Notes under the pieces: generated by a model
Database searches by the model: none
What the model saw: only the letters and a program-made list of their open reading frames with translations
What the model was told of the DNA's origin: nothing
Assembly: GCF_021869535.1 (NCBI RefSeq)
Contig: NW_026262745.1
Location: 27,404,001 to 27,468,000, forward strand
Source: Mytilus californianus
Lineage: Eukaryota
Length of the DNA stretch: 64,000 nt
Direction of reading: 5' to 3'
Translations under genes and position numbers: made by a program
Part shown: positions 171 through 63,950 of the stretch, piece by piece
Numbering within the stretch: the stretch's first letter is position 1
Layout: each line of letters starts with the position of its first letter

Positions 171-2385
171 TTTCTTACGTCCTTTAATATTGAAAATAAA
201 ACCACTTTTAAAGAAAATTGCCTTTGAAATGCATTAATATATCATCACTGTGATTTTTTATGCATGCGTGTTCTATAATGATAACTATAATGATAATATC
301 TTAAATTAAATGTAGAAGTCTCTTTTTATTGAGCGATTTATTTTCCTCAGAAAAAATCAGCGATCAACTAATGGACAGTTCCTTTGTAGAACATCACTGT
401 TCAATGTAATGTTCAATGAAGCCATGTAGGACTTATGATTCGCCAAAATCTCATCCTTGTCAAATGATATGTTTTTGTATGTGGGATTACCTGAGTTATC
501 ATTCATTCCTACTTCTTTTACGAGACACTCGTAGTAATACGATTTTTATTTTTTAGGAAGCACATTGATGATTTGACTTTTATGTCCTACATTTAGGCTT
601 CATGGACTTGTATAAAAGAGAGGCGAAATATACTAAAGGGACATTCAAACTGACAAGTCGAAAACAAGCTGACAACGCCATAGCTAAAAAAGAAATAGAC
701 CAACAGACAAACAATAGTACACAAAACACATTATAGAAAACTAAAGACTGTTATAGTTCATCATTATTATTCTGTTGTAATTAGATCAATGTGTATTTTA
801 GTGATCAGACGTGTCAACCTCGCTGAAATATGTCCATCCCCCAAACCTATCATTTAAATAACATGTCGCCCATACATGTCTAATTTTATTCCCCCTAAAC
901 ATGTCCGATGATTATTTTCGTTCAAACCTGTCTGAATTTATACTTAACCCAATCATATCACGTCACAAATTGTCCTCTATGACGCCAGTTACATATAATA
1001 AGTCATCTGATCTTAAGTTTCCTTTATTATGTTCATACTGCAACATACAAGAAGATACTGAAGTGTATGTTGCAGTATATTTTTTACAGATTATACTATT
1101 TAATAACAGTCAACAGTTGATTTTTGCTTCTGTATCCTTGTTCTTCTTATTACCTGAAAATTCAGGAAAACCAGTCTGTTAATTGAATACATCAAATGTG
1201 TCTCTACATATCCAGTGGAACGATGTATTAACAAATCTGTAAACAATCAAAGTTGATAAAATTTCCTTTTTACAAACCCTAGGACGATAAGATCATTTCC
1301 ATGTTCAGCAGTAGCTTCAGGACGAATGGAGTTGTAACTTGGACAGACAATAAATGGCTCAAGACGTGGACCATGCACTGTATACAGTTCAGGATAATAT
1401 GAGGGACATTTTTCTCTCACATTAACATATATCATATCAGAAAAAAAAGGTGACATAACAAACATTGATTTTCACCAAGTTTTATTCCTTTGCATTAAGA
1501 ACATCCAGTTAACAATTTATGCACACGAAGTATTGGAAACTAAATCTGTAGATGCATCTGAAATAACTCTTTGGAATTCACTAATTGATCAACCTTTATA
1601 TCTCAATTGCAATATAAAATGCAAGTAGTCGTACAGAACTTTGTTTACTGCACTTATCATACAAAGAAAATTTACATTTGATATTTAGCTGTCATAAAAA
1701 AAAATCTCAAATGCGAGTGCCTTGCAAATTATCATTAACTCATTGACCAATACAGTTCCCTTGAGGTCATTTTATGTTCATCGATTACATGATGTGTTTT
1801 TTGTTTTGTTTTGTTTTTTTTTGTTTTTTTTTGGGGGGGTAGATTTATTGAAAACCGCAATTTACGCAGTAAATAAAACCAGGTCTGTTCCATAAACTTT
1901 TTTTGTTTTGGTATGTTTTCCAACCATGAACATGGTAGCGAAATTGAGTTTGATACGTTAGTGCATCTTCAGAAATGGACATGATTGGACGTCAGCGAAA
2001 GCACACATTCCAGTGTCCAAAACAATCTATACATGTTTAGATATTCATTGACGTCGACCACACGCGTTTGAATTTGAGGATTGGACACGTGTGCTGATCG
2101 GACACGTTTGAAGGGAAGGACACGCTTTTGAGTATAAAATACCTTTATAATATATCATTTAAACAAAAACCGAGGCATCATCATTATACGTCAAACAAGA
2201 CATCACAGATGGTTAGCATGTTTCACGTTTTTCCAACATTTGATAACTAGACTAAAACATCATTAGGGATTAGGGGTTCCTCTTAAGGACTGACATCTTG
2301 ATATTTACCAGTCATTCACCTGTTTCAGTTCTTAACAAAATAAAATAATGTTAAAAGGGGATTTTTTTCAGATTTATTTAAAGAC

Positions 2386-4172: not shown

Positions 4173-4549
4173 GTGAGTAAAGTTAATAGTCAATAGTAAA
4201 AAAAATATTTTATATCTGTCACCGAAACTTTATATTTGTAAACACTCTGATACTTTTTAGTATGCATTATATTATTAAGTTTACGAGTTCAATGTATGAC
4301 CCATTAAACATTTTCAGAAAGTCATATACACAGACACTTATGACGATGACATCGATTTTCATAAGCAGGAAGTTCTCTAAATAACTTCAATCTAAATAGA
4401 TTTAAACATATTTTTATATATTTTAAGATCTTTTTTTATAAACTGAGTGAATTTGCAATGATTCACGGTCGACCAAATCCAAGGTCCTGTATAATATTAT
4501 GATTTTGTCAAAATCTGTTTCTTTTGATTTATAACGTGATGACATGAAT

Positions 4550-5920
4550 CACAGGCGCTTGGGTATATGATACAGAAATTTTAATTTTTTTTTGTTGTTG
4601 ATTAAAATATTCAATTTTCTATATTTATACTACATATCTATCACTACTGCGCATGTCTCACCTAGTTTCGAGTGATTTTACCAACTTTGAGACAAACCCC
4701 CATTTTACTATCCACACTAAGAAACAAAAAGGCAACTAACTCGACGCCATCTTGCGTGCTATAAATAAATAATAAAATTGACCTACCTGGATTCCCCATC
4801 GATTTTTATGGAAAACATGCCTTTCTCGCAGTCCGATCGCAGACGTCGTTTCTATTCATCAAATTGCTACTGTTCGTAACATTTTTAGTTCATCTCAAGC
4901 ATATAATAAAAAGATTTTCACTATTTTCACTAAATTCAAATTTACGTGCCCGGAAGTTTACTGTTAATATTCAGGGGAAGTTACTTTTTCCCGAACTTTT
5001 GTTAAAGGGAAGTAATATTTTCCCGGACTTTTTCGGAACATCTCTGCAAGTACACATAAAACAAAGAAAGGGATACGATGATTTCCGAATTATTATAAAA
5101 AAGGCGCAACTTTTTCGTTGCTGAAAAAAGAAAAGATCTGTTTTAGAAATAATGGCAAGTCAAACAAAGGAAGAAATTACGAAGGAAAACATAGTTTCAT
5201 GGTAATTTATGAATATACAAATGCTCACACAAAATTGTCTTATGAAAAGAATTAAAAAAATAATCCGTGGACCATTTGATCTGATATTTTTTTTATTCTA
5301 TTTTTGGGGGAGGGGTGCACTTACAATCAAATTAAAGGCTTGATCTTGTTCTTCGTCCATCATATCTGTTTGTTTACATTCAGTATTAGTTCGGTAATCA
5401 TCGTATCCCTTTCTTTGTTTTATGTGTACTTGCAGAGATGTTCCGAAAAAGTCCGGGAAAATATTACTTCCCTTTAACAAAAGTTCGGGAAAAAGTAACT
5501 TCCCCTGAATATTAACAGTAAACTTCCGGGCACGTAAATTTGAATTTAGTGAAAATAGTGAAAATCTTTTTATTATATGCTTGAGATGGACTAAAAATGT
5601 TACGAACAGTAGCAATTTGATGAATAGAAACGACGTCTGCGATCGGACTGCGAGAAAGGCATGTTTTCCATAAAATCGATGGGGAATCCAGGTAGGTCAA
5701 TTTTATTATTTATTTATAGCACGCAAGATGGCGTCGATTTAGTTGCCTTTTTGTTTCTTAGTGTGGATAGTAAAATGGGGGTTTGTCTCAAAGTTGGTAA
5801 AATCACTCGAAACTATATGAGATATGCGCAGTAGTGATAGATATGTAGTATAAATATAGAAAATTGAATATTTTAATCAACAACAAAAAAAATTAAAATT
5901 TCTGTACCCAAGCGCCTGTG
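4550..5920. mobile_element. Foldback DNA element, about 540 bp arms, about 295 bp spacer, 8 bp TSD; possibly P/Galileo superfamily
   Basis: 4550-5092 is the near-perfect reverse complement of 5387-5920; termini CACAGG...CCTGTG; ACATGAAT at 4542-4549 and 5921-5928. Confidence 0.88.
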
Positions 5921-7590
5921 ACATGAATAAGTAAAATATCAATGAGTATTGATGATTATTTGCAGTACAATGAAAACAACATTTTCCGGTGTATTTATAA
6001 TGTTTTCAAGAACAGCTGTTGTACGAATCTGAAATAAGATTAATATTCTAATGGATATTTTGAAAAATGATTATTTAATATAATGCACTTAGGACTTGAC
6101 ATGTACAAACATAATGTTGTTAAGAACTGTTGTAGTATTAAAGCTTATTGTAATAGCCTGAAGTGATAATAAAGTATGAATAACACCTCCACGCAATGTA
6201 GATATAAAATATGTGTCTCTTATCATTGAGAAAACATATCTCTGTTTATTTGTTTTTTGTTTATTTTTGTCTGTTTTTGTATTTGTATTTTGTAAATGTC
6301 AGCTGGTATCATTCCTGTATTGGAATTTACACCAATAAAATTATTTGATTTGATTTGATTTTGATTTGTACACAAAAATTACCAACCATTCAAAACAGTA
6401 ATAAGTATGTCTTAATTAGACAGTATATTACTAATAGTCTATATTGGTTGTGGGTCCCTTGAAGTAAAAGAAGGCATTAAATCAATACTTTACTTTAGGG
6501 GTCAGCATATATCTTTAAAACAGTTTGGCAGTTAAGTACTTTCTTTAGGTTGTGGGTCCCTTAAAGTGAAAGAAGGCATTATAAATTCTGTATTTACCAA
6601 AGTCATAACAACAATAGGTAAAGAACATAACATACACATTAACATAAATATATAGAACAAGATATTATAACATGTGAAATCTTTATTTCTGTGTACGAAT
6701 ATTTTACCCAAATTAAATAGCTCTTTTGTATCATCATGATCATTTGAACGCTCTAATTGCATAGAATGTTTTGTTCCATTATAAGATAGAATGAAAATAA
6801 GTTCTAATAACTTGATGCATTGGTCATTTATGAATGAAACGTATCTTATTCTCAATGTCATCGTTACAAGAACAAGAGCCTATTTCCTCATAAATTTGCA
6901 AGAAACTTCAAACTTCGATAGCTATATTTGGCTACTAAGTCTTCTTTTAGTAATACATGTCTGATGAATAAATAGTATTATCAGTATATACATGAGTAAT
7001 ACATAATTAATATTGTAAATAAAAAATTTGAACCATGTTTCTATAAAAAGACAGGCGAAAGATACCAAAGGAATATTCAAACTCATTAGTCGTAAAAATC
7101 TGACAATGCCATGGCAAGAAACAAAAAGATCATTTGATTAGACAAATAACAGTGTGCAAAACACAACAGAGGAAACTAACGACTGAGTAACACGAATCCC
7201 AGCAAAGGGTTATTGCCGGTGTCCTTAATTGTAAGCAGATCCTGTTCCATATGTTGCACCTGTCATGTTGAACATTTAATTCAAGCACTCATTTGGCTGT
7301 CAAAATCTTACTCCTACACGTACTGTTTAATTATTAAGTAAAACGCACCCGAGAGATAACTGTCTTTACAATAACTCTGAATTTACCAAAATCACATAAA
7401 CCTATGGGAAGCAGTTCCTTTTTAATAAATTACAACCAATTAGTCTTACAACTTGGATATTTTAGTAAATCATCATATAGAAAAAACAACAGGTTCTTTT
7501 AGAAAAAAATTGTAAGGTATAATTCAGTTTATATTAGCATTTTTAAACAATTCTACATTTTCTGGTGTGTAATAATGACAATCTGCCTAG

Positions 7591-12626: not shown

Positions 12627-12970
12627 TTCTACATTGCCTAGAGGTATAGGGGAGGGTCGAGATCTCAAAAAACATCTTTCGCCCAGCCGCATTTTTGCGC
12701 CTGTCCCAAATCAAGAACCTGTGGCCTTTGTTAGTCAAGTGTATGATATTTTTTGAATTTTGGTTCATCTATATTTTTCGAAGTTTAGTGCGATGTCCAT
12801 TTTATCTGAACTAGTAAACATTTTTGTTTAGGGGCCAACTGTAGCCCGTCTCAGGGTGCAGAATTTTCTCGCTGTGTTGAAGACCCATTGGTGGCCTTGT
12901 GTTGTTTTCTGCTCTTTGTTCGGGTTGTTATCTGTTTGACACACTCCCCGTTTCCATTCTCAATTTTATT
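12627..12970 (+). repeat. Dispersed repeat A, the truncated 3' end of the Naiad element; another copy at 62885-63150 (-)
   Basis: Collinear with 59130-59462 (ctagaggtatagggg...ccatttccattctcaatttt). Confidence 0.8.
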
Positions 12971-13689
12971 CTGTCCAAGTTTCATACAATTCCATTAAGA
13001 TTTGAAAAAGTTATTGATGTTTAACCACAGACTGGACATAATGGCTGACGCCGAGGACGACTGAATTTGGGATCGCTATGTCTTATAGATATAAGAAGAA
13101 GTGGTATGAGTGCCAATTAGACAACTCTCTCATCCAAGTCACAATTTGTAAAAGTAAACTATTATAGGTCAAAGAACGGTCTTCAACACGGAGCATTGGC
13201 TCACACCGAACAGCAAGCTATAAAGGGTCCCAAAAATTACATGTGTAAAACCATTCAAACGGGAATACCAACGGTCTAATTTATATAAAAAACGAGAAAC
13301 GAGAAACACTTATGAACCACATCAACAAACGACAACTACTGAACATCTTTGACATAAATGTCGCTGTGCCAAAGTTAAGTACAACGTTTTACTCAAATTT
13401 GTGACATAGCCCATATAATGACTTTTTTCGAAAAAAAATTGAATACCAATAAATCCTAAACAGTCGAGCCATTAACAACTGTATGTTAAACTTTACCCGA
13501 GGTAGTTGCTCACAGACAGGAAGTTATAAACTAAAAACAACAATTGAATATATAATGGTATACTATTAGGTTAAACATAAATAATTATCTATTGGATATC
13601 TATTTGTGGTATTTAAATAAAAATTGATAAACCAAAAACCGACCGATTATTAATCAGTCTATAACGGGCCCGGATCCAGAAACTCCAGT

Positions 13690-17800: not shown

Positions 17801-18929
17801 TCAATTCATTCTTTAAACATATGATCATTTATACTTGTAATTGGTATATCAAAAGATTTCATTTTCATGACTTATTCCGCTTCAGCTTTGTTTGTGAATT
17901 GTCCTATGATGGTTCAATGCCTGTGGATGTGATTATTTGACAATACCACACAAACTAGTTGCCCTATAACAATACAATATAAGTCCGTCTGTCCGTCCTG
18001 CATAAGTTTTATGTCGTATGAAAGGTTAAAATGGTCTCATCTGATTTCCATTAACTTTTATGCACAGTCATATTTATAAAACAAAGATCCTTGTTGATTT
18101 TTGTAAAAATTGGAAAAACAAAAACATTGTTAAAAAAAAACGCAACAAAACAACTGTCATATTCCTAACGTTGCACAGACATTTTCCTAAGAAACTGGTG
18201 GGTTAAACATGGTAACTAACTAATAGCTAAAGCTCCTACTTGTATGACAGTTGTTTTATGATCCGAAATATTGGCAAATTGGTTGATCAACCCAAACAGA
18301 CACAGACATAATTAGTTAACGTGGCCATAACTGGGATCCAGTAGCCAAAACTTTGTTAACATACATCACAGACTAGATTGGTTAACGTGACCATAACTTG
18401 AATCAAGCAGCCAAAACTGTGTAAGCATACACAAAGAAATACAACATAACTAAATTAAACGTTCAAACACATACAATTAAATCAAACAAAGACGCCAACA
18501 AAATGCTTGGTAGTTGATATTACAGCCAGTGTAGTAAAGCATAATGACATATACACTTTCCCGATAACATACAAAATATATTTACAAGGGTAAACAAAAT
18601 GAAAACACCACTATAAATACCTCATGTGTCCGAATCACATCTCTGGACACACCCGCATAGGGAATGCCAAAGGCAAAACATCTGAAATTGGATGCCATAT
18701 ATCGAAACACGTCAAGAGTCGTACAACCAAATGGAACATAATAATACAAATACAAATAAGGGAAAACTGTAAAGTAAATAAGTAGATACATTTTCCACAC
18801 TGAGTCAACACCTATAAACCAAGACCATCCTGTAATAATTGTGAAGTAGACATTGAATATGTATCTATTAGGACTTGGTACTTTTAAATGAACTTAGAAA
18901 TATATATAACATATACATATACAAATATA

Positions 18930-19866
18930 CATAAATCCTACTTTGTAAAAAATCACTCTGTTTCAAACAAAAAATTCTCTGAAACTGACAATATCAAGAT
19001 GCTTCATTTCTTGATTGACAACATATTTGTTACGTTTGGAAGACGTGTTTTTCAACAAACAATCACCATTCCCATGGGAACAAACTGTGCTCCTATTCTT
19101 TCCGACTTGTCCTTTTATTCATGTGAGGCTGACTCCATACAGGAACTTCTTAGGAAGAAAGAAAAAAAGTTAGCATTATCCTTTAACTTTACTTTCCGCC
19201 ATATAGATGATGTTCTCTCATCAGATACAGTTAAGTCTGCAACATATCTTGACTTACATCTAGAAATTGACAATGAGGGTTGGTTGAAAACAAAACTTTA
19301 CGACAATAGAGATGATTTCAGCTTCCCAATTGTGAACTTTCCATTTCTATGTAGCAACATTCCAGCAGCGCCTGCATACGGGGTATATATCTCCCAGTTG
19401 ATACGATATTCCAAGGCTTGTATTTCCTATCATGATTTCCTTGATAGAAGGTTGCTGCTCACAAGGAAGCTATTAAACCAAGAGTTTTAAGTGGTGAAGT
19501 TGAAATCATCCTTTCGTAAGTTTGTTGACCATTATCCTGGTTAAAGAATACCCGTTTCACAGATGATAGCGGATATGTTTCTAATGTCGTAACTACAATC
19601 CCTCCCCATTTCCCAAAAGTGACCTACCGAATTAGACTTATTACCGGGTTTGTATTAACACGAGCAACACGACGGGTGCCACATGTGGAGCAAGATCTGC
19701 CACTCTAAGATCACCCCCTGTTTTGGGGGGATTCGTGTCTTTAGTTTTCTATGTTGTGTTTTGTGTACTATTTTTTTTCTATTTTTCTTTTTCTTTTTTA
19801 GCCATGGCGTTGTCAGTTTATTTTCGACTTTTGAATGTCCCTCTGGTGTCTTCCGCCTCTCTTTTA
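18930..19866 (+). mobile_element. 5'-truncated PLE (family D): RT C-terminal half plus 3' UTR
   Basis: QQTITIPMGTNCAP, RHIDD, LKTKLYDNRDDFSFPIVNFP; internal deletion after IDDVLS; no C-terminal GIY-YIG. Confidence 0.85.
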
Positions 19867-21129
19867 GAATAGACATTCTTTTAAAAAAATCCTGGCTCGT
19901 TAATTTTTTTCTCACACACTGATGACGTTAATCAAATTCTAAGTAAGTAGCAGCTGCAAGCTCCTGTATATCGTATGAGTTCAGAAATGTATATTCTATA
20001 CGCGGATGAAGTTGGTAAATTGCTGCCAAGGTGAGGAACATTTATAATTTCAAAATTGAAAACATCTCATTTGTCATATACTGTGGTATTGAGATGACCG
20101 ATGTAGTCAAATTCAGTGTATATGTCTAACAATGATGATAAGGGAGCTGTATATGTGGTGTCTGTAATCTCAGGTTCAGGACTATTAATGGGACCCAATC
20201 AGAAAAGTTTGTATTATTAATGGAAAGTACATCTTCAATATACCTCTATGTAAAGCTAAATGATATAGCTGCTTTGATCTAACTCTTACGAAGAAAAAAA
20301 ACGTACACATTAAGATATTTCCAAGGTCTGACAATTGGTAAAAAATGTTGTTTTCTGATCACACCTTGTCTTTCACGATCTATATAAGGCGTTTCCTATT
20401 CTTTTTTCAAATAATAAAATTCTTTTATTTTGCTGGCCTATCTGACACACTAAATTTTAAATATATTATGATATGTTTTCTTGAAAAGTACTTCATTTTT
20501 CTTCAACGTAGTACACAGTATTATTAATGAAGTTGAATCATTTTGACAGACATAATTCTTTTTTCTGATATGTTCCGCCTTTTGAAAATAAAGCAGTTTT
20601 TTATAACAGATTTTGAAGTAGAATTACACTTAATTGCATTTACAATCCGATTCCAGATCTTTTACGATCCGATCGCAATTCTATTTCAGTGTAAGTTATT
20701 CTTTCGCGATTATTATTCTCGATATACCGAATGACACCCGTGAAAAGATATATACAAATTGCATAAGACAAAAAAAAAAAATTAGCAATACATGGACTCG
20801 CTATAATTTATCAGCATTTCATGCGTATTATAGACCAGATGCCTTCTAATTATCCATCGAGAGGACCACCGAAGACTGCCGACGGTCGTTTAATCCGATA
20901 TAAACATAAAATGAAATAGAAATAGATAGCGACCAAGTGCAATCTGATTTTTCTAGGTCTGTTTGATTTCATATTATATGTTAATACTATATGTAAAGCA
21001 TCGTGTTACCTGTATAAGAATGATTTTTATGGACCGGACTAGTCAACAAAACGGTCATTCCTAGTGTCTCCTTTGTTCCATATTTAAATGTTGACTTTTT
21101 TTTCATTTTTAATGATGACTCCTTATTAG

Positions 21130-22707: not shown

Positions 22708-22772
22708 GTAGTTGTAAATTCTTTTATTCTATACATTCAGTATAGTTAAATTGACTTTTTTAAATGTTTCAG

Positions 22773-23946
22773 ATATCTATATACCGATCATCTTCAGCTT
22801 AGCAAAAATTGCGTTATTCCTTTATTGTATACCGCTCAGAAGTATCAGATTGCAGGATTAATCTCAAAATGTGAGAATTATCTACAAGATAAATTAGCTG
22901 TTGATAATGCATGTACACTTTTCAGTCATGCAAAATTTTTCACAATGGCTAAACTTAGAACTAATGCACTCAAATTCATAGCAGATGATGCGATCGATGT
23001 GTTAAAACATGACGATTTTCTTTTGCTCCTATCAGAAGACTTAGTTGATATTCTTCAGCTTGATTCCCTTTGTGTACAAGAAGTAGATATAGTACGTGCA
23101 GTTCTTAAGTGGGTGGATCATAAACTGACCAAGTCCAAAAACAAAATCGACGGGAAATCAAGACGAGCCGTTCTTCTTAAAGATGGTATTCTATATACTA
23201 TGGCAATCCCTCTACTTTCCCTTGAGGAATACACGTCAGTTGTCATACCAAGTAGTATTTTGACAGACGAAGAGCAGCTACAGATTTTTAAAGCTATTAC
23301 AATTCCGAATAATCCATCAGCATGCGGAAAATTTAGTGTAAGTCCGAGAAAAGGAGGTAGGGTTGTGGAGGTGTTAGTTAACGATATAGTGTATCCAGGT
23401 AATAACCGGTCAGGTGATATCAATGACATCATGTTTTCTGAGTATTTGACTAATTTACAACCTGAAAATTTATCTGTGAAAGCAAACAAAAGAATCAAGA
23501 TTAAATCAGTTACCCTCAAACCACAATTCCAGCAACCAGGCCAGAATAACTGCAATTTTAAAGTTGATATTAAAACTGTTACCAGTGTGCAAAACATTCT
23601 TCCTAGAAGATCCAATATGTTTGACTTCCGCGAAGTTGAAAGTAGCGGTACTGAAACTGATGAAGGCACATTGAATGTAACTTTTGAAGGCAGAGCTTGC
23701 AAACTTCCAATTGACAAAGTTATTTCAGAAAATGAGAAATTAGTATTGACAATCAAACCGTGTATTCCTTTTGGATATTCTGATATGTGGGGAACAAACC
23801 AACACGTGATCCCGATCTTACCACAAAAATACCAACTGATAAATGGTATGATGTATCAACACGAGTTATCTCAACAAACAACTCTTTACTTGGCTCTTAC
23901 AGGCGGAAACTTAGTGGAAAGTTTTGAAGTGGTGGAAATTTGTTGA
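22773..23946 (+). CDS. BTB-BACK paralog A, last coding exon (rest of BTB, BACK, C-terminal domain); spliced CDS about 498 aa
   Basis: Acceptor tgtttcAG|A completes Lys, then YLYTDHLQLSKNCVIPLLYTAQKY, BACK motif QEVDIVRAVLKW; open to TGA at 23946. Confidence 0.93.
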
Positions 23947-38457: not shown

Positions 38458-39615
38458 GTGAGTAGTAGTCATCTGTCATTGTTGCAAAGTATTATACATG
38501 ACATCATGGTCGCAATTGAAATTTCTGGTCCTAGCATTAGTTGATGCAATAAGTTCAATGTAAAAATAATAATTTTATGTTGTAATGCACTAGTTATAAA
38601 TTTTATGATTTATGATAAGGTGTGTCCTTTGGAAATATTTCGTTTCGGAATCTAAGGGTACATTAAAAACACTCTTTTCAAATTATTATGTTTAACAATT
38701 TTAGTCTTGTATTCATAATAAATATTTAAAGGGAGAAAATGAGACTGGAAAAATTGACATTGTAGTTAAGATTGAAAGCAACTTAATGACATTAAGTTAA
38801 TAACTTTTCTTAAATGTAAATGAAGATACTTCCAAAAAAAAAACATGCAATAGAGATTGTAAGGTACCATATTTTCAGACCTGAAACTTTAAAAACCATA
38901 TACATGTATGTATTAAAATTTTGTTATCTTATTTAATGTTGTTTTTTTTTTGCTTTTCTTTTATCAATATTGTTTCTTTGAACGATTTTGTGGTTGATTC
39001 TAGGGACAGCGTATTGTGGTTCTGTCATTTTTTATTATGTCTATTGCTTTCTAGGACTTTTAACAAGATAAATACAGTTGGATACGTCTATAATAAAAGC
39101 TATGGTACTAACGTCTGATTAGTTAACTGTATTTTATCATGATATAACTGCAATACTGCAATATATCTTTATTCCAAATTATTAAATTGCCATTTTACTG
39201 TTTAAGTTTTTTTATATTTGAAAACAGGAAGTGTATGTATTAAATGGAAAATGCATACCCTCGTTCTAATAATACAAAGAAGATTGAAAAAGGGTAAAGA
39301 GGGAAGATTACCTCATTAAAAAATAAAAAGACAGACAATAGTTCGCAAAAGTACCTTTATTAATAAAAAATTAGAAACATGAACCCCACAAAAACAAATG
39401 TTGCTAAAACATGCTTCTGATGGAAAAGCAAGCGTACGTAATGAGTAGTTTGATATCATCTGGAAAAAAATATTACGCAGACAACGGATAAGCTGTTATG
39501 TGTTTGATAAACGCAAAGCATGGTCATAGCGTAGATTTAAATACAATTTTTGGCAATAAATTATCAAATCCATTTTCAGTATCGTTAAATTTTCTTTCTT
39601 TTTTTACTGTTTCAG

Positions 39616-40750
39616 ATATGTATATACCGATCAACTTCAGCTAAGCAAAGATTCTGTTGTTCCTTTATTGTATGCCGCACAAGAGTATATGATCGCAGGA
39701 TTAATCTCAAAATGTGAGAATTATATACAAGATAATTTAGCTGTTAACAATGCATGTACACTTTTTAGTCATGCAAAATTTTTCAAAATCGATGACATTA
39801 AAACTAAAGCGCACAGATTCATAGCAGACAATGCGATCGATGTGTTGAAAAATGACGATTTTCTTTTGCTCCCATCAGAAAACTTAGTTGATATTCTTAA
39901 GTTTAATTATCTTTGTGTACAAGAAGTATGTGTAATTATTGCTGTTCTTAAGTGGGTCGATCATAAACTGACCAAGTCCAAATGTCAAATCGATGGGAAA
40001 TCAAGAAGAGCCGTTCTTCTTAAAGATGGTATTCTATATAATATGGCAATCCCTCTACTTTCCATTGACGAGTACTCATCAATTGTCTTGCCATGTGGCA
40101 TTTTAACAGAAGAAGAAGAGCTTCAATTTTTTAAAGATAAATCAATTCCGAATACTAGTAGTCCATCATCATGCGGAAAATTCAAGATACGTCCGAGAGA
40201 AGGAACTAGGGTAGTAGAAGTTTCAGTTAACGATATTTTGTATCCAGGTAATACCTATCACAACAGGGATGATTACTGGGTTCCTTTAGAAGATGAAACT
40301 GTTTCTATCAAAACAAACGAAAGAATAAAGATTAAATCAGTTACCATCAAGCCACAATTCAAACATCAAAACCAGAACAACTGCAATTTTAAAGTGAAAA
40401 TTGAAACGCAATCTGGCTCATCTAGAGTCATGCAAAAACGTCATAGAAAATTCAGTAGAGTGGACAAGGGTAGTTCTAAAACAGAGGAAGGCACTGACAT
40501 AGTGAATGTAATATTAGAAGGGGGAACTTGCAAACTTCCAATTGACAAAGTTATACAAACAAACGAGACGTTAGTATTGACAATTAAACCAGCATCAAAC
40601 CGACACGAGATCAAGTTTTTATCACAAAATTATCAAAATTTGATAAATGGTACGTTTTATCAACACGAGATATCTCACCAAACAAAACTTTACTTGTCAC
40701 TTACAGGCGGACATTTAGTGGAAAGTTTTGAAGTGATGGAAATATGCTGA
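39616..40750 (+). CDS. BTB-BACK paralog B, last coding exon; spliced CDS about 487 aa
   Basis: Acceptor tgtttcAG|A, YVYTDQLQLSK..., collinear with paralog A to the stop at 40750. Confidence 0.93.
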
Positions 40751-46389: not shown

Positions 46390-47500
46390 GGGAAATGAGA
46401 GGCGAAGGATACCTAAGGGACATTCAAACTCATAAGTCGAAAATAAACTGACAACGCCATGAATTAAAAAGAAAACGACAACCAAACAAACTACATTACA
46501 TCAAACATAACATAGTTAACAAAAGACTGAGCATCACAAAGCCCAGCAAAAACTGGGGGTGATCTCAGGTGCTCCGAAAGGGTAAACAGATCCTCCTCCA
46601 CGTGTGGCACCCGTCGTGTTGCTCATGTTAGTCCAAACATGGTGACAAGTCTAATTCGGTATGTCACATTCGGGATAAACTGCATGGGATTGTAGTTACG
46701 ACAATTGGAACATATCCGTTATCAACTGTGAAACGGATATTCTATAACAGTCAACCAGCTCGTGATGGCGTCCGTAAAATTTACAAAGGGATGATTTCAA
46801 CTTCACCACTTAGAAGTATTGTGTTAATAGCTTCCTTGTGAGCAGCAACCTTCTATCAAGGAAATCATTAGAGGAAATACAAGCCCTGGAATATCGTATC
46901 AACTGGGATATATATACTCCGTATGCAGGCGCTACATTAGGGAAGCTGAAGTCATCTATTTTGTCGTAAAGTTTTGTTTTCAACCAACCCTCATTGTCAA
47001 TTTCTAGATGTGAGTCAAGATATGAGGCAGACTTAACTCTATATGTTGTATCCCTCATCTCAAGTTCGATGTGATAGATGTGTTCAACATACTCTATATT
47101 TTGAATTATTTAGTGAGAGAACATCATCTATATAGCAGAAAGTAAAGTTAAAGGATACTGCTAACTTCTTTTCTTTCTTCCTAAAGAGTTTTTGTATGAA
47201 GTCAGCCTCATATGATCAAAGAACAAGCCAGCAAGAAGAGGATCATAGTTGGTTCCCATCGGAATGTCAATTGTTTGTTGAAAAACATGTCCTCAAACCT
47301 AACACATATGTCGTCAATCAAGACAGTCAGTTTAAGAGAATTCTTCGTTAAAATCAGAGTGATTTTTAACAAGGTACTCCCTAAGACAAGAAACTTGTAT
47401 CTGCGTAGGCCATTCTTTAATATGAAATAAAGCATGACCAACTCTTTCAATTTATCTTTTAGTTTGGAATGGGGAATACCTGTGTAAGTGTAGAAAAACA
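46390..47500 (-). mobile_element. PLE family D, truncated copy, reverse strand
   Basis: Translates to YTGIPHSKLKDKLKELV and SASYLDSHLEIDNEGWLKTKLYDK; same 3' UTR as 19490-19866. Confidence 0.85.
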
Positions 47501-47609
47501 AATGATTTAGTATTATTGCAAGATGAAAAAGTCTTAGATTTTATGTACTTTAAAAGATCGTGGAATTATTTAGTATCCACATCTGATTCACGCCGTCTCT
47601 GGAGTAGGT

Positions 47610-47860
47610 AGTTTTAAATTTCCCATCTCATTCGGTATTCAAGATCTTGCAGCTGCTAAACAGACTTTATAAAACGTCACCGGTATCTAAGCAGAAAGTT
47701 GATCTGTTTCTAAAAAAATTCATCGGAAGATACCAAGACCTTGTTGATAAATTTTCTGTATCAACTTCACAAATAATAAATGATGATCTTGAAGTATAGA
47801 TTCTAGGTACTGATGCTGTTAATCATCTTAATTACGTGTTATAGAGTTCTTTTATTTGTC
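47610..47860 (+). mobile_element. 3' fragment of a further PLE family
   Basis: Translates to ...IRYSRSCSC*TDFIKRHRYLSRKL...KFIGRYQDLVDKF (stop inside), a PLE RT C-terminus. Confidence 0.55.
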
Positions 47861-55856: not shown

Positions 55857-58825
55857 ATGAAACAGAAACAGAAAAAAATATACTAAATACCAAACTCGTT
55901 CAAAGGGTTTCTACACGTCTCAATCTTCAAAATCGCTTATCTAAAAATACTACAATCGCTAATCTTTAATAATAAAAAATCGTTGTTACCTTTCTATCGA
56001 TAATTGTCATACCAAACAATGACTTACATGTCCCCGTCTTTCCACCAACAATACGGTTAGGTCCATGTTTTATGGTCGCACATTTTCTTTTAATTTTGAA
56101 ACTAATATAAATTGAAAAACTAACAGTATTATCTATTTACTCACATGAAACAAACCGGGCTGCGATATTCAGTACGAACATGAAACTAGACGCTATTTAT
56201 CTAAACGCACGCAAGAACACCTTTATCATTTTAAAAGACCCAAAAAATTCAAACGTATCATTTATCAACTGTGTACACCTTAAGAAGCACAGTCATCTTA
56301 CTAAATATCAACCAGTTCAACCAAGTAGTAAAAAGCCAGCCTGGAGAATCTCATTCAAAGTTTGTGCGATCACGGAAAATAATTGAATTGAATTGGTTTA
56401 AAGAAAATTACAGACAGTCTATCCTCTGCTAACATTTTGGAAATAGTTTCTAAAACTGTTCATAAAAACCGTTCTCATGGGTGTAGAATAAATCGCAATC
56501 AGAGAAAATTTCGTACCAACAATAAAAATATTTCGGACCTAATTACTATTTCAAAAAACAACGGCAGAAATTATCTGTTAACCAAGCTCTGGTCTTTACC
56601 TGTTAATAAATTACATCAAATTTTAGAGGATTGCAACAACAACTCCATATTGCAGTTCTAAGTATGAAAGCGTCCAAATTATAATTGCATATTGTTATTC
56701 TAAACTGTTTCCAAAAAAATAAATCGCCCTGAAGAACATAAAAAACCATTTTATTAAAATCAAATATGTAAATAAAGGTTTTGATTTTGTAAATATTGCC
56801 GGTATTTTTAATGATCATTCTGTTAAGAACAAATTCCTGGCTATTTTGATAATACTGAACTACCTCTTATTTGTTATATTTACCAAAACATCTACTCGGA
56901 AATATGTGTTTAAATGTGGCGAAGTGTGTAAAGATGTTAATATTAGTGACAATACACCTACGTCATGAAATTGCAGTAATTCCGAATACATTTATGGCCC
57001 CAGTTCCCATGTTATAACAGGAGACATAAACATCTTTCATGACCGAGAGTTGAAATCATTTCTCAGTTAAGGACCTAAATATCGTCCGCCGTCAATTATT
57101 AATTGGAATGAGTGTCGTAACATCATCCACGACTCACTCCGTACTTACTGCTCGAAATGGATAAAACGAGAAAAAGCTGACAAAAAATCCTTAGATTCTT
57201 TTTTTAATTCAGTAATGAACATAGTTGATATTCGTATTAAACATTTCAAAGAACATTTTACTCCTAACAACGACCATAACAGCCCTATTTCTCGTATCAA
57301 ACAAAAGCTAAAAATCCTCGCCAAGGAATTTGTTTTGTCCCGGCTGATAAAGCTGCTAATAAGATCATTTTTGTTTGAGGGAAATTTTACATTGAGGTTC
57401 TGCAAAAGGAAATCACGAGTTCATCAACATTCCAACTGACTCCATTTTCGGAAAATGACATCTGTAACAAACATACACTTTTAGCTACTTCTTTACAAGC
57501 AGAACCAAATACAATGAAAGTTCCAACTATGTACTGGCTTCCGAAGCTGCACAAAACACCTTACAAATATAAATTTATTTTGTCTTCAAGCGATTGTTCC
57601 ACTACTTGACTGTCTATTCTACTTACTAGTACACTTGGTACAATCAAAAATCTGGTAGTAAATTGTTCAAATAAGGCCTTCGACAATAGAAGGATTTTAT
57701 TACTTTTGGAGTGTCAAAAATTCCTTGGAGGAAGTACCTGATAAATTGCATGCTTATATTGGTGATTTCGAATCTGTTCAAAGTTTTGATTTTTCTACCC
57801 TATATACCCCTTTGCCTCATAATCGTATTTAGAATTAATTCACACACCTAATCAAACAGGCATTTAAAAAGCCAGAAAGCGAATGTATATGTTCAAACTC
57901 TTTTAGGTCATTTTTTAGTAACAACAAACAAAAGAACTATGTCAATTGGACCTGCTTTGATACGATAACTGTCCTTGAATTTTTACTAGATAACATTTTT
58001 GTTCGCTATGGAGATTCCGTATATCGTCAAGTTATCGGAATTCCAATGGGGACTAACTGTGCACTACTTATTGCGGACCTGTTTTTGTATTGTTATGAGT
58101 TACAATTTATGACTAAAATCAGCAAAGACCCATCGAAACAACATCTGATACAAAAATTTAATAACATTTTTAGATATTTGGATGAGATATTGGCTCTCAA
58201 TAATGACGACTTCAGTATGTACACTAAAGAGATTTTTCCTGCTGAACTGACTTTGAATAAAGCTAATACTAACAATGAACACTGCCCATTCCTGGATCTT
58301 GATATCTATATCTTTAACGGGAAGCTTAATACAAAAATGTATGATAAAGGATATGATTTTTCATTTCCTATTATTAATTATCCATTTTTAGAATGTGACG
58401 TTCCCTTGTCAATATCTTACAGTGTTTATATGTCTCAACTTGTTCGATTCGCTCGTGTATGTAACAACGTATTTGATTTAAACGAAAGAAATCTCTGTAT
58501 TACTGAAAAAACTATTACACCAGGGTTTTCGATATCACAACCTAGTCAAAACATTTAGTAAATTTTATCATCGGTGCAAGGACATCATTTATAAATATAA
58601 ATCAACATGCAGACATCTTATACGTTCAGGTATAGCACTTCCAATATTTTATGGTAATATTCTATACGAAGCACAAAAATGTCGGCACTCACCTCAAAAG
58701 CTAACAAAACCTATAAACAAACTTATTCAGAAGGGATATAGTTATGATACTGTTGTCAGGTCATTAAAGATGGCATATTGTGGTATTAATATTAATTCAC
58801 TCATAGGGCTTTGCATCGGAAATAA
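55857..58825 (+). pseudogene. Disrupted GIY-YIG-CxC-RT ORF of the Naiad element with TGA at conserved Cys positions
   Basis: Manual translation across several frameshifts and TAA/TAG stops; the YxDD motif reads YLDE; the start ATG at 55857 is tentative. Confidence 0.8.
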
Positions 58826-58872
58826 ACACATTTATTCTAAAACCAGGTGTTGGCATGATATGGGTTATGTTC

Positions 58873-58948
58873 TTCTCATATATCTTATGATGGTATGATA
58901 CTAAAACCCTAACGGGAGGGATTGTGCTTGATTTTCATATAATGAGGA
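58873..58948 (+). promoter_or_regulatory. Type II SECIS-like element in the Naiad 3' UTR
   Basis: ATGAT core 58887-91 / TGAT 58929-32; helix II GGTATGATACT pairs with GGGATTGTGCT (one A.G mismatch); AAAA then CCC-TAAC-GGG mini-stem; helix I 58873-82 / 58938-48. Confidence 0.78.
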
Positions 58949-59609
58949 CATAATCTTTCAATCAGTTCAATTGGGGTCTGGTGCTGGCATGTCAGTAACT
59001 GCTAGAAGTCTTTTGTTAATTTATGTATCATTGTCATTTTGCTTAGTTTCTTTTGTTACCTATTCTGACATCGGACTCGAACTTCTTTTAAACTGAGTTT
59101 TACTGTGCGTATTGCTGTGTTTGTTTATTCTACTTTGGCTAGAGGTATAGGGGGGAGGGTTGAGATCTCACAAAACATGTTTAACCCCGCCGCATTTTTG
59201 CGACTGTCCCCAGTCAGGAGCTTCTGGCCTTTGTTAATCTTGCATCTTTTTTTTATTTAATATGTTTTGGAGTTTAGTGTGACGTCCATTTTTACGGAAC
59301 TAGTACACATTTTTTTATAAAGGGGCCAGCTGAAGCCCGCCTCCGGGTGCGGGATATTCTCGCTGTGTTGAAAGAACAATTCGTGGCCTTCTGCTGTTTT
59401 TTGCTCTTTGGTCGGGTTGTTGTCTTTTTCACACATTCCCCATTTCCATTTTCAATCTTATTCATTCTTACTAAATCAAACGTTGAAAAAGAAAATAACA
59501 CATTTTGTGCAACCGAATAGTTTCTAGATTTACCTTTATCAGTTATATCAGACCAAGACATTTTTCAGTCAAAACTATATAAAACAAATTGATGACTAAA
59601 AACGATGGT

Positions 59610-60862: not shown

Positions 60863-61274
60863 ATATGTATACGTATGGAACGCCATCACTGCCTTATAAG
60901 AAGAAACCACAATGACATGATGTCAAAACACTGTTACATGATATGAATACATCATTACATGATATGAATACTACATTACATGATATGACGTCATTTTTTC
61001 CCTGTCAATGAACATGCAAACAACATTTATCTATATTTTGAATGTTTAACACATTATTCAGGAAAATAACGTAATATTTAAACTATGATAATTCCTAAAC
61101 TTATATTTTGTGAAGTTTTAGTGCTAATATTGAAGACCCTTTGTGAATCTGCATGTTTAATAACATAAACACATGTTCAAACTATATATCTCTATCACTC
61201 ATTTTCTCACATGTATTACTTAATTATGACATTGTCATTTGTAAGAAATAAATTTTTATCTGATATTGACAAAA

Positions 61275-61440
61275 ACTTTCTTTTTTTTTACGACAATGTT
61301 CAACCTGCATCCTTTGGTATCTACATTTCCCAACTTATTCGCTTTGCTAGAATATGACCTGATGTAGGGGACTTTGAAGAGCGTAACCTTGCATAAACAA
61401 GGCTATTTTTACAAGCAACAGATAAAACTTCATATAATTT
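61275..61440 (+). mobile_element. Short PLE RT C-terminal fragment
   Basis: NVQPASFGIYISQLIRFARI*...KQGY; TGA at 61355-57 where the other copies have Cys. Confidence 0.6.
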
Positions 61441-63149
61441 CAAACATTTAAGTTGTTACCAGCATCTTATCTCAAATACGTCACTCGTTTAAGGAAAATA
61501 TGACAATATAATTTTTATTGTAATGACCTAAACAAAAATTGAAACATTTAAACAGATTTTAAATTCGTGAAATTTCTTTCTTCTTTGAATCACTAGGACT
61601 ACAGGAATGACAATACTCACTAGTTCAGTATCAACTTTTAATACTTACTGGCTTCCCCGGGCTGGCTTCATGAAATGTGTTGTTTCTTATTATAAAAAAG
61701 AACAGTTTTCAACCAACAACAGTAGCTAAATTTGCTAGCTTCTTATAGAAAAACTCTCATCAAAGATATCAGGCTTAATTAAGCCAAATAGTAGCAACAA
61801 CCTTTGGATTGTGCTTTCCAAATTATGTGCAGTCCTTTATTTCTTTGCTAAGTTTTTTTTGTATTGCCTTTTACTTTTAAGGCATATAAATAGACAAAGA
61901 GGCACGCAAAACTGATAATATATTATATTATATTATTTAAGGTCCCAGGCAGGATGCACTGTTTTGGACAAAGGTTAAATGGCTTCATCCGTGTCTATGT
62001 ATATTTAAAAATGATGACAAAATTTCTTTTGTATGACATGGGTGCATTATTATCATAATGAGAATGTCACAACACTATAATCTCAGTAAGAGAATACAAA
62101 CCACACCTGCTCAATACCATACAAACTAAACCCGAAGATGAACGTTCAACACAACACAACTGACTAAACCACAGTAGCCAAATACATAGTATCACTATGC
62201 AGAAGGTTAGGTCAAAATGCAAATGTAGTACTTTATCACAAGGCAGAAAGTATAACATTTTTATATAGTTTTAAGAATCGAAATGAGATGGTCAAAGTTC
62301 TAACCTTTTCTGTGAACACAATACAGGTGTAACAACTGACTGATCAATCTTCAACAAAATTCATCAAACTTAGACCATGGTCCGTTTATATCTTTTTGTA
62401 CCTTTCTTGTTTTAAGTAACTGCAATGAAGTCAACTAAAATCATCACAGGCTATGAGTCTGTAATCTATTTTACATTAATCACAGCAATATATATCTCTG
62501 TGATTTTCAAGATCAGAGGCCATAAGTCATAACCACAATGATGAAAGGAGGAAGTCTGTTCCAGATGTATATTTCATTCATGAAACGACCATTAAAGTTT
62601 TTTGAGGTAGTGAGGAAGTGCTATGCTTTTCAGTGTAATTAATTGTAATCTTGTTCCAAACTTACCAGTATGTCTTTGCCCTAGAGTAAGAAGGATAACT
62701 GTTCCTACCAAATGTGGAGGAAAGGTATAAGATCAACGTATTAATACTGGTAAATAAATTGAATGTATCTTCTTTAATAATTGGATGATGTATAGAAATA
62801 AAATCTTTGCCATGAGGGCTATATGGTTATTCACTGATTATCTTGCTAAGCAATGACAACTAGCTTGGCTTCAGAAGTGTTCTTAAAATTGAGAATGGAA
62901 ATGGGGAATATGTCAAAGAGACAACAACCCGACCAAAGAGCACACAACAGCCGAAGGCCACCAATGGGTCTTCAACGCAGCGAGAAAATCCCGTACCCGG
63001 AGGTGGTCCTCAGCTGGCCCCTAAATAAAATTGTGTACTAGTTTAGTGAAAATGGACGTCACCCTAAACTCCAAAACATATAAATGAACTAAAATTTAAA
63101 AACATACAAGACTAACAAAAGCCAGAGGCTCCTGACTTGGGACAGGCGC

Positions 63150-63950
63150 AATAAAATGCTCCGCAGGGCGCAGCTTGATACGACCGCAGAGGTCGAACCC
63201 TGAACAGTTGGGGCAAGTATGGACACAACATTCAAGCTTGATACAGCTTTGCATTTGGATTGTGATTAAATATTTGACACAGCATAGGTTTCTGACACAG
63301 AATGAATGTGGTCTAAGAACTTAAAATTTTTAAATTGGACATTCACCTATTATGGTCCAATATCCAAAATCTAAATACATGGTTAGATTCAGCATATCAA
63401 AGAACCCCAAGAATTCAATTTTTGATGAAATCAAACAAAGTTTAATTTTGGACCCTTTTTACCTCAATGTGGACAAAGTTGATAACGGGGCCCAAAAATC
63501 AAAAATCTAAGTACATGGTTAGATTCAGCATATCAAAGAACCCCATATATTCAATTTTTGTTGAAATCAAACAAAGTTTAATTTTGGACCCCGATTTGGA
63601 CCAACTTGAAAACTGGACCCATAATCAAAAATCTAAATACATGTTTAGATTCAGCATATCAAAGAACCCTAAGAATTCAATTTTTGTTAAAATCAAACTA
63701 AGTTTAATTTTGGACCCTTTGGACCTTAATGTAGACCAATTTGAAAACGGAACCAAAAATTAAGAATCTAAATTCACGGTTAGATTCGGCATATCAAAGA
63801 ACCCCAATAATTCAATTTTTGATGAAATCAAACAAAGTTTAATTTTGGACCCTTTTGACCTCAATGTGGACCAATTTAAAAACGGGGCCCAAAATCCAAA
63901 AACTAAATACACGGTTAGATTCAGCATATTAAAGAACCCCAAGAATTCAA
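63150..63950 (-). mobile_element. HINE family 3 with 126-136 bp tandem units; a partial + strand copy lies at about 14650-14890
   Basis: ggttagattcagcatatcaaagaacccc recurs at 63381, 63517, 63643, 63778, 63913; terminal stem-loop gctccgcagggcgcagc. Confidence 0.75.

Follow-up and report, generated by a model that had tools for sequence, protein, structure and literature searches.

A hairpin behind a decayed Mytilus Naiad retrotransposon is very probably a SECIS element

RESULTS

Identity of the hairpin

The hairpin at 58873-58948 of the window (the whole stretch of 64,000 nucleotides analysed) is very probably a genuine eukaryotic SECIS element, situated in the 3' untranslated region (3' UTR) of a selenoprotein-encoding Mytilus Naiad retrotransposon. 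We base this reading on the structure and the position of the hairpin, on five TGA codons that fall on cysteine columns upstream of it, and on the same pairing of TGA codons with a SECIS in intact relatives. The identification had been put forward in a first-pass annotation made from the letters alone, and it was upheld by covariation among relatives, by the first rank of the hairpin under an independent model, by the SECIS elements of intact relatives and by the context. Taken alone, the hairpin is suggestive but not beyond chance for one window, whereas the combination of hairpin, position and strand is beyond chance. Since the hairpin by itself is modest, with a score under the cut-off, a rival fold and a measurable chance rate, it is the context that carries the case.

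Table 1. Features of the hairpin and of the element that carries it
Feature	Position in the window	Strand	Basis
Whole SECIS with extended helix I	58862-58956	+	Rfam SECIS_1, folds, covariation, independent covariance model
Helix I, 10 pairs, one bulged base	58873-58882/58938-58948	+	fold
ATGAT core strand, 5' side	58887-58891	+	sequence, fold
Helix II, 11 positions	58892-58902/58918-58928	+	10/11 pair
Apical AAAA, unpaired	58903-58906	+	canonical spacing from core
Apical mini-stem CCC-TAAC-GGG	58907-58916	+	3 G-C pairs
TGAT core strand, 3' side	58929-58932	+	sequence, fold
Decayed near full-length Naiad (Penelope-like, N-terminal GIY-YIG endonuclease plus RT)	55978-59463	+	tblastn, frameshift-aware alignment
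Endonuclease region, CX4CxxC-type and CCHH zinc-finger cysteines, frameshifted	55978-56430	+	alignment to L001/L007 N-terminal domain
TGA 1, second Cys of CX2-5CxxC finger	56020-56022	+	C/U in 12/12 aligned homologs
TGA 2, Cys before GIY-YIG motif	56113-56115	+	C/U in 15/17; TGA in L001-L004
TGA 3, first Cys of CCHH finger	56146-56148	+	C/U in 16/17; TGA in L001-L004
TGA 4, first Cys of Naiad CxC motif	56966-56968	+	C/U in 22/23; TGA in L001-L004
TGA 5, Cys eight residues past DKA (DKA+8)	57376-57378	+	C/U in 22/23; TGA in L001-L004
Reverse transcriptase (RT) and C-terminal region, with frameshifts and stops	57514-58822	+	homolog alignment
Inferred natural stop TAA	58823-58825	+	homolog C-termini
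3'-terminal segment common to short window repeats	59128-59463	+	blastn

Structure, scores and folding of the hairpin

All the parts named in the first-pass annotation (the ATGAT/TGAT core, helix II, the AAAA, the CCC-TAAC-GGG stem and helix I) were found where it had placed them. The core, UGAU at 58888-58891 and UGAU at 58929-58932, agrees with the consensus UGAN/KGAW, which is given together with the apical adenines and the definitions of the SECIS types in PMC3753652. Helix II comprises five Watson-Crick pairs, five G.U pairs and one A.G mismatch, in the order GU, GC, UG, AU, UG, GU, AU, UA, A.G, CG, UG. As for the label "type II" that had been attached to the hairpin, the extra apical helix is indeed there, and it is in register in four relatives, where 90% of its cells were paired and one pair had changed on both sides; the label is not distinctive, since a possible apical mini-stem can be seen by eye in both published clam Naiad SECIS elements.

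The Rfam check that had been proposed gave a mixed outcome. The model SECIS_1 (RF00031) matched at 58879-58941 over its full length (model positions 1-64 of 64), but with 28.2 bits the window hairpin stayed below the gathering score of 35 bits. The E value was 0.0014 in a 401-nt search and 0.22 in a search of the 64-kb window with 4227 Rfam families; dividing the whole-Rfam value by the number of families gives about 5e-5 for a single family. The hairpin was the only SECIS among the eight Rfam matches obtained in the window at E values up to 5. In a pattern scan, the core with at least 10 of the 11 helix II pairs occurred at a single site in the window, while 0.07 sites were expected in simulated 64-kb sequences, with one site or more in 6 of 100 simulations.

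When 58873-58948 was folded in isolation, the SECIS shape was the minimum free energy structure (-16.3 kcal/mol), with pair probabilities of 0.82 to 0.97 for the first eight pairs of helix II and of 0.87 for the three G-C pairs of the apical mini-stem. In three longer contexts, a rival fold was better by 1.8, 3.3 and 0.4 kcal/mol under an energy model that has no term for SBP2 binding, and in three contexts for which pair probabilities were computed, the mean for helix II dropped to 0.01 to 0.09. The core energy was -8.6 kcal/mol in the window hairpin versus -11.9 to -21.4 kcal/mol in its relatives.

At 58917-58959, two strands, the 3' one of helix II and the 5' one of the extended helix I, vie for one downstream stretch, which results in two folds of near-equal energy, while the hairpins of the relatives fold stably as SECIS elements. 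This competition may be a product of decay, not a switch, and the G.U-rich helix II of this copy may itself be partly decayed.

The element that carries the hairpin

The hairpin belongs to a decayed Naiad element (Table 1) that is colinear, from 55978 to about 58820, with the intact open reading frame (ORF) of locus L001 and with locus L007. Position 55978 is the limit of the alignment (to the intact L001 ORF, L007, P0151 and P0002) and not an established 5' end. A Pfam search of the RT and endonuclease pieces of the window element gave no match, and the identity of the element therefore rests on its homologs: the RT is 86% identical to P0001 over a 231-aa query, and L007 has a Pfam GIY-YIG domain at residues 139-230 followed by RVT_1. 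Two Naiad motifs were recognised in the window element itself, the CxC motif in the form U-N-C (56966-56974) and the DKA motif (57346-57354).

The copy is a fossil, a dead pseudogene unable to make protein. It carries about 11 frameshifts (seven in the N-terminal alignment and four in the C-terminal one, at positions that vary with the template) and nine in-frame stops, six of them TGA and three TAA or TAG. In the RT part, frameshifts lie near 57689, 58509 and 58805, and stops at 57607, 57830 and 57836. As the copy is dead, its SECIS probably recodes nothing at its own locus.

The first-pass annotation had placed the hairpin about 50 nt after the stop codon of the retroelement. The distance holds from the inferred TAA, as 47 nt separate it from 58873 and the SECIS starts 36 to 47 nt past the stop, depending on where it is taken to begin. 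The stop itself is in frame only across the frameshift near 58805; in the raw frame, the last ORF enters the hairpin and stops at 58898. The C-termini of homologs point to the TAA: of the 25 closest proteins, 23 stop no more than one alignment column away from it.

Downstream of the hairpin, the 3'-terminal segment of the element has two short repeats in the window, at 12627-12971 (+) and 62884-63159 (-), with 79% and 84% identity in blastn. Both start some 180 nt past the hairpin position and lack the SECIS, which would thus be missing from very short copies. In the window copy, the 3' end is not duplicated upstream in the manner of a pseudo-LTR (pLTR) or a partial tandem, and some Naiads are listed without a pLTR (PMC8557442). 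There was no hammerhead ribozyme among the eight Rfam matches of the window (E up to 5), nor was a second SECIS-bearing copy of the element found in the 64 kb by Rfam, blastn or the covariance model.

In-frame TGA codons on cysteine columns

The hairpin had been taken in the first-pass annotation as support for a pattern of TGA codons upstream, and this link held: five of the six in-frame TGAs fall on near-invariant Cys/Sec columns, and the intact L001 ORF has a TGA at four of the same five positions (sites 2 to 5). The column counts of Table 1 come from 27 sequences picked for length. The sixth TGA (57607) and the three TAA or TAG codons, four of the nine stops in all, lie on columns without Cys; chance TGAs do arise in this copy. 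With the nonsense rate taken from the copy itself (4 events in 389 opportunities), the binomial probability of finding at least 5 of 36 Cys sites changed to TGA was 3e-5, and at three times that rate it was 0.005.

Most of the sites have published counterparts. In PMC8557442, the position of TGA 1 is a Sec site of the spider family Naiad_Sdum, those of TGA 2 and TGA 5 are Sec sites in all four published families, and that of TGA 3 is a Sec site in both clam families. The CxC position of TGA 4 is absent from the Sec sites listed in the available text of that 2021 paper.

SECIS elements and covariation in relatives

One scan of GTDB genomes yielded 22 Naiad-like loci (L001-L022); their presence in bacterial genome records is most likely due to contamination of the assemblies by animal host DNA. 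None of the 22 is a close DNA relative of the window's Naiad family, the 72% identity of L020 being that of a 48-residue segment only. Loci L001-L004 (CBDDTI010000653.1 and CBDDTI010000448.1), within a bacterial MAG, form head-to-tail arrays of one family with two subfamilies 95% alike. Their unit of about 3.7 kb is a Sec Naiad in largely intact condition, whose ORF of 1074 codons stays open if TGA is read as Sec. The family ORF as seen in L001 has five internal TGAs, four at window sites 2 to 5 and one on a non-Cys column. As experimental templates, these loci are the best suited for asking whether Sec is incorporated, whether it serves as a zinc-finger ligand and whether transposition depends on selenium.

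The Rfam search covered 13 of the 22 loci. A SECIS_1 match followed each complete ORF end in L001-L004 with 42.1 to 42.8 bits, above the cut-off of 35. L006 (39.3 bits) passed the cut-off and L005 (29.2 bits) fell below it; the sequences of these two loci do not include the upstream TGA sites. For their part, the four scanned cysteine-type loci that have TGY at DKA+8 and extend 300 nt or more past the RT (L007, L009, L014 and L015) gave no SECIS_1 match.

In L001 (3148-3150 region) and L006 (1060-1075), the ORF terminates at the UGA within the AUGA core of the SECIS, whose 5' arm thus belongs to the coding sequence in these loci. Unlike them, the window element and L005 have a TAA stop upstream of the hairpin. 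A different overlap of ORF and SECIS has been described for Naiad_Mmer (PMC8557442).

When the window hairpin was aligned with those of L001, L003, L005 and L006, the core aligned without gaps, and AUGA, AAA and GA were invariant in the five rows while the stems varied. Ten of 15 pairs had changed on both sides and 88% of the cells paired; in helix II, 9 of the 11 columns showed two-sided changes. With slid partners, pairing fell to 40-56%, and none of 500 shuffles reached the observed level. The set consists of four distinct families only, and the structure was read off the same sequences. A covariance model based solely on the four relatives gave the window hairpin first place among 16 matches in the window, with 16.1 bits and an E value of 0.1. 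Among the loci, model R1 matched only its own training families, and its silence on the cysteine-type loci is for this reason weak evidence.

Breadth of selenocysteine use among Naiads

The best 120 of 310 long RT homologs were taken, and 117 could be anchored. Of these, 109 start at or downstream of DKA+8, their starts piled against the site; six span DKA+8 with Cys and two are irregular. Similarly, in a search with the linker region (best 150 of 1149 representatives), 12 proteins terminate immediately in front of DKA+8, and in 34 the chain runs on with a Cys at that site. In the subclade of the window element itself, five of the 25 nearest proteins carry Cys at DKA+8, so that individual sites switch between Sec and Cys inside the clade. 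Trp occupies the first CxC position in 14 of 135 relatives, as opposed to 0 of 135 at the second Cys position; we infer a common TGA decayed to TGG by one transition. As the queries derive from a Sec element, ascertainment favours a picture of broad Sec use.

An IQ-TREE tree was built from 38 RTs picked from 138, the published spider Sec Naiads not being placed in it. The window's group (11 rows, support 99/98) and a group with L001, L005, L006 and P0111 (12 rows, 90/84) form one clade (100/99). Trees joining either of these groups with the cysteine-type L007-like group were rejected (AU p 1e-4). By eye, P0111 ends at its C terminus almost as Naiad_Mmer does, and L007 starts as Naiad_Mcor and Naiad_Mgal do. 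These sequences hint at a single large clade of Sec-using Naiads in which Sec and Cys are exchanged site by site.

Other features of the window

Further Naiad-like RT remnants lie at 18846-19535 (+), 19944-20278 (-), 46699-47784, 408-545 (-) and 61274-61414 (+); the first three resemble L007 more than the Sec family, and forward and inverted pieces adjoin at 18.8-20.3 kb. No SECIS match was found in these five remnants. Two BTB-BACK paralogs, at 22750-23946 and 39560-40750 (+), are 75% alike at the DNA level, and the ORF of the first is 99% identical to a Mytilus californianus protein. Each paralog ends in Cys-TGA with a second TGA three codons on. This terminal TGA was considered as a Sec site and rejected, as orthologs end at the same column with varying residues and no SECIS follows. 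A 547-nt inverted repeat with 97% identity (4549-5095 and 5384-5921, within 4549-5921) and a long hairpin at 2386-2526 with a weak score against plant miRNA models are probably non-autonomous DNA transposons.

DISCUSSION

The SECIS, SBP2 and eEFSec pathway decodes UGA as selenocysteine. In an active ancestor of the window copy, the SECIS would have led this host machinery to place selenocysteine at each of the five UGAs, of which three correspond to zinc-finger ligands in the endonuclease, another lies within the CxC linker and the last precedes the RT. Selenocysteine would then act as a metal ligand in three finger motifs. Because all five sites lie upstream of the RT core, no RT would be made unless every UGA was recoded. 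Five recoding events served by one SECIS would keep the protein supply low and sensitive to selenium, and retrotransposition would depend on selenium because that supply would.

3' stem-loops act as RT recognition signals in other retroelements. Accordingly, the hairpin might be a recognition or stability element for the RT, with the UGAs read as Trp or Cys by another route; the Trp found at the first CxC position in some relatives would fit such readthrough. We consider this explanation highly improbable, though the best placed of those weighed against the SECIS reading. The host genes of the window have their terminal TGA at the position where the orthologs stop, which shows that the code is standard, and the Trp cases would be explained by the TGA-to-TGG transition in decayed copies. 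In addition, the invariant positions of the hairpin are those of a SECIS (AUGA, AAA and GA), and the hairpin is absent from the four testable cysteine-type Naiads, which need RT recognition as well.

That all the SECIS hallmarks have been kept although the ORF is destroyed could be taken to mean that a host transcript has co-opted the SECIS at this locus. The persistence of a 76-nt motif is unsurprising at such a degree of decay, the closest recognised host gene terminates at an ordinary stop some 18 kb upstream, and Pfam matched none of the 20 ORFs with 65 aa or more on the plus strand from 40.8 to 56 kb, a search that short exons would escape. Co-option here thus appears very unlikely. The first-pass annotation had gone further, suggesting that mobile copies could donate a SECIS to host transcripts, a proposal already made in the Discussion of PMC8557442; the window gave it no support, with no recognisable host exon upstream and two short 3' ends devoid of the SECIS.

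A chance hairpin beside a decayed element, with TGAs that are random nonsense mutations of Cys codons, is equally improbable and already largely refuted: the copy is heavily decayed (four stops besides the five, and the frameshifts), Cys codons are one change away from TGA, the SECIS score is under the cut-off and a similar pattern turns up in a few simulated windows, but the five Cys-to-TGA changes are far from expected by chance, the other 31 Cys codons are all unchanged, four of the TGAs are common to an intact relative, and the hairpin is in register and covaries with the hairpins of the relatives.

With the SECIS reading preferred, the locus and its relatives suggest that selenoprotein-encoding transposons are common and mis-annotated as fragmented ORFs; the authors of PMC8557442 had asked whether such transposons are rare exceptions. 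A wider picture can be sketched tentatively, and we hold it to be possible rather than probable. Sec use in aquatic Naiads would mark one large, old clade, with mussel and clam families, in which zinc-ligand positions flip between Sec and Cys. The five UGAs and the single SECIS would act as a selenium gate on RT supply and tie retrotransposition to the selenium status of the host, and longer copies would scatter ready-made SECIS elements.

Comparison with known systems

Selenium-using Naiads are already known. Craig et al. reported in 2021 four Sec Naiads among 54 families, two from clams and two from spiders, with three or four UGAs and type I SECIS elements of grade A by SECISearch3 (PMC8557442). 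In the available text of that paper, four mytilid Naiad families appear without a SECIS note. A literature search, with subscription journals, Repbase and Dfam outside its reach, found no other paper on Sec Naiads, and no mussel Sec-Naiad family, five Sec sites, Sec in CxC or one-large-clade pattern. Mytilus does have SECIS-bearing selenoprotein genes, the deiodinases (PMC8481496).

Among general SECIS elements, the window hairpin shares with RF00031 the core quartet, the 11-pair helix II, the apical adenines, helix I and the extra apical helix, and it departs from typical members by its sub-cut-off score, an unusually G.U-rich helix II and a mobile-element carrier. The cysteine-type Naiad_Mcor and Naiad_Mgal (PMC8557442), which are L007-like, belong to the same superfamily and host genus as the window element; L007, with 32-44% identity to it, has Cys at all five sites and no SECIS.

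The spider families Naiad_Sdum and Naiad_Smim, from Stegodyphus, share with the window element the TGA before GIY-YIG, that at DKA+8 and a SECIS in the 3' UTR, and Naiad_Sdum also shares the TGA at the second finger Cys. Unlike the window element, they keep Cys in the CCHH and CxC motifs, and an independent origin has been reported for them (PMC8557442).

The closest counterparts are the clam families Naiad_Scon and Naiad_Mmer (PMC8557442). Like the window element, they have an endonuclease-first Penelope-like ORF, TGAs before GIY-YIG, at the first CCHH Cys and at DKA+8, and a SECIS right after the ORF that shows, by eye in the supplement, the same AUGA...AAA...GA layout. The window element differs in its host, a mytilid mussel, and in having five Cys-site TGAs instead of three, the additional ones lying in the CX4CxxC finger and in CxC, where both clam consensus sequences have TGY. 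Its SECIS starts 36-47 nt after the stop, as opposed to 1-21 nt in the clam Naiads; the element falls in a subclade sister to Mmer-like proteins, and the window copy is dead. What is new with respect to the clam and spider families is thus the mussel host, the five sites, Sec in CxC and the evidence for a large clade.
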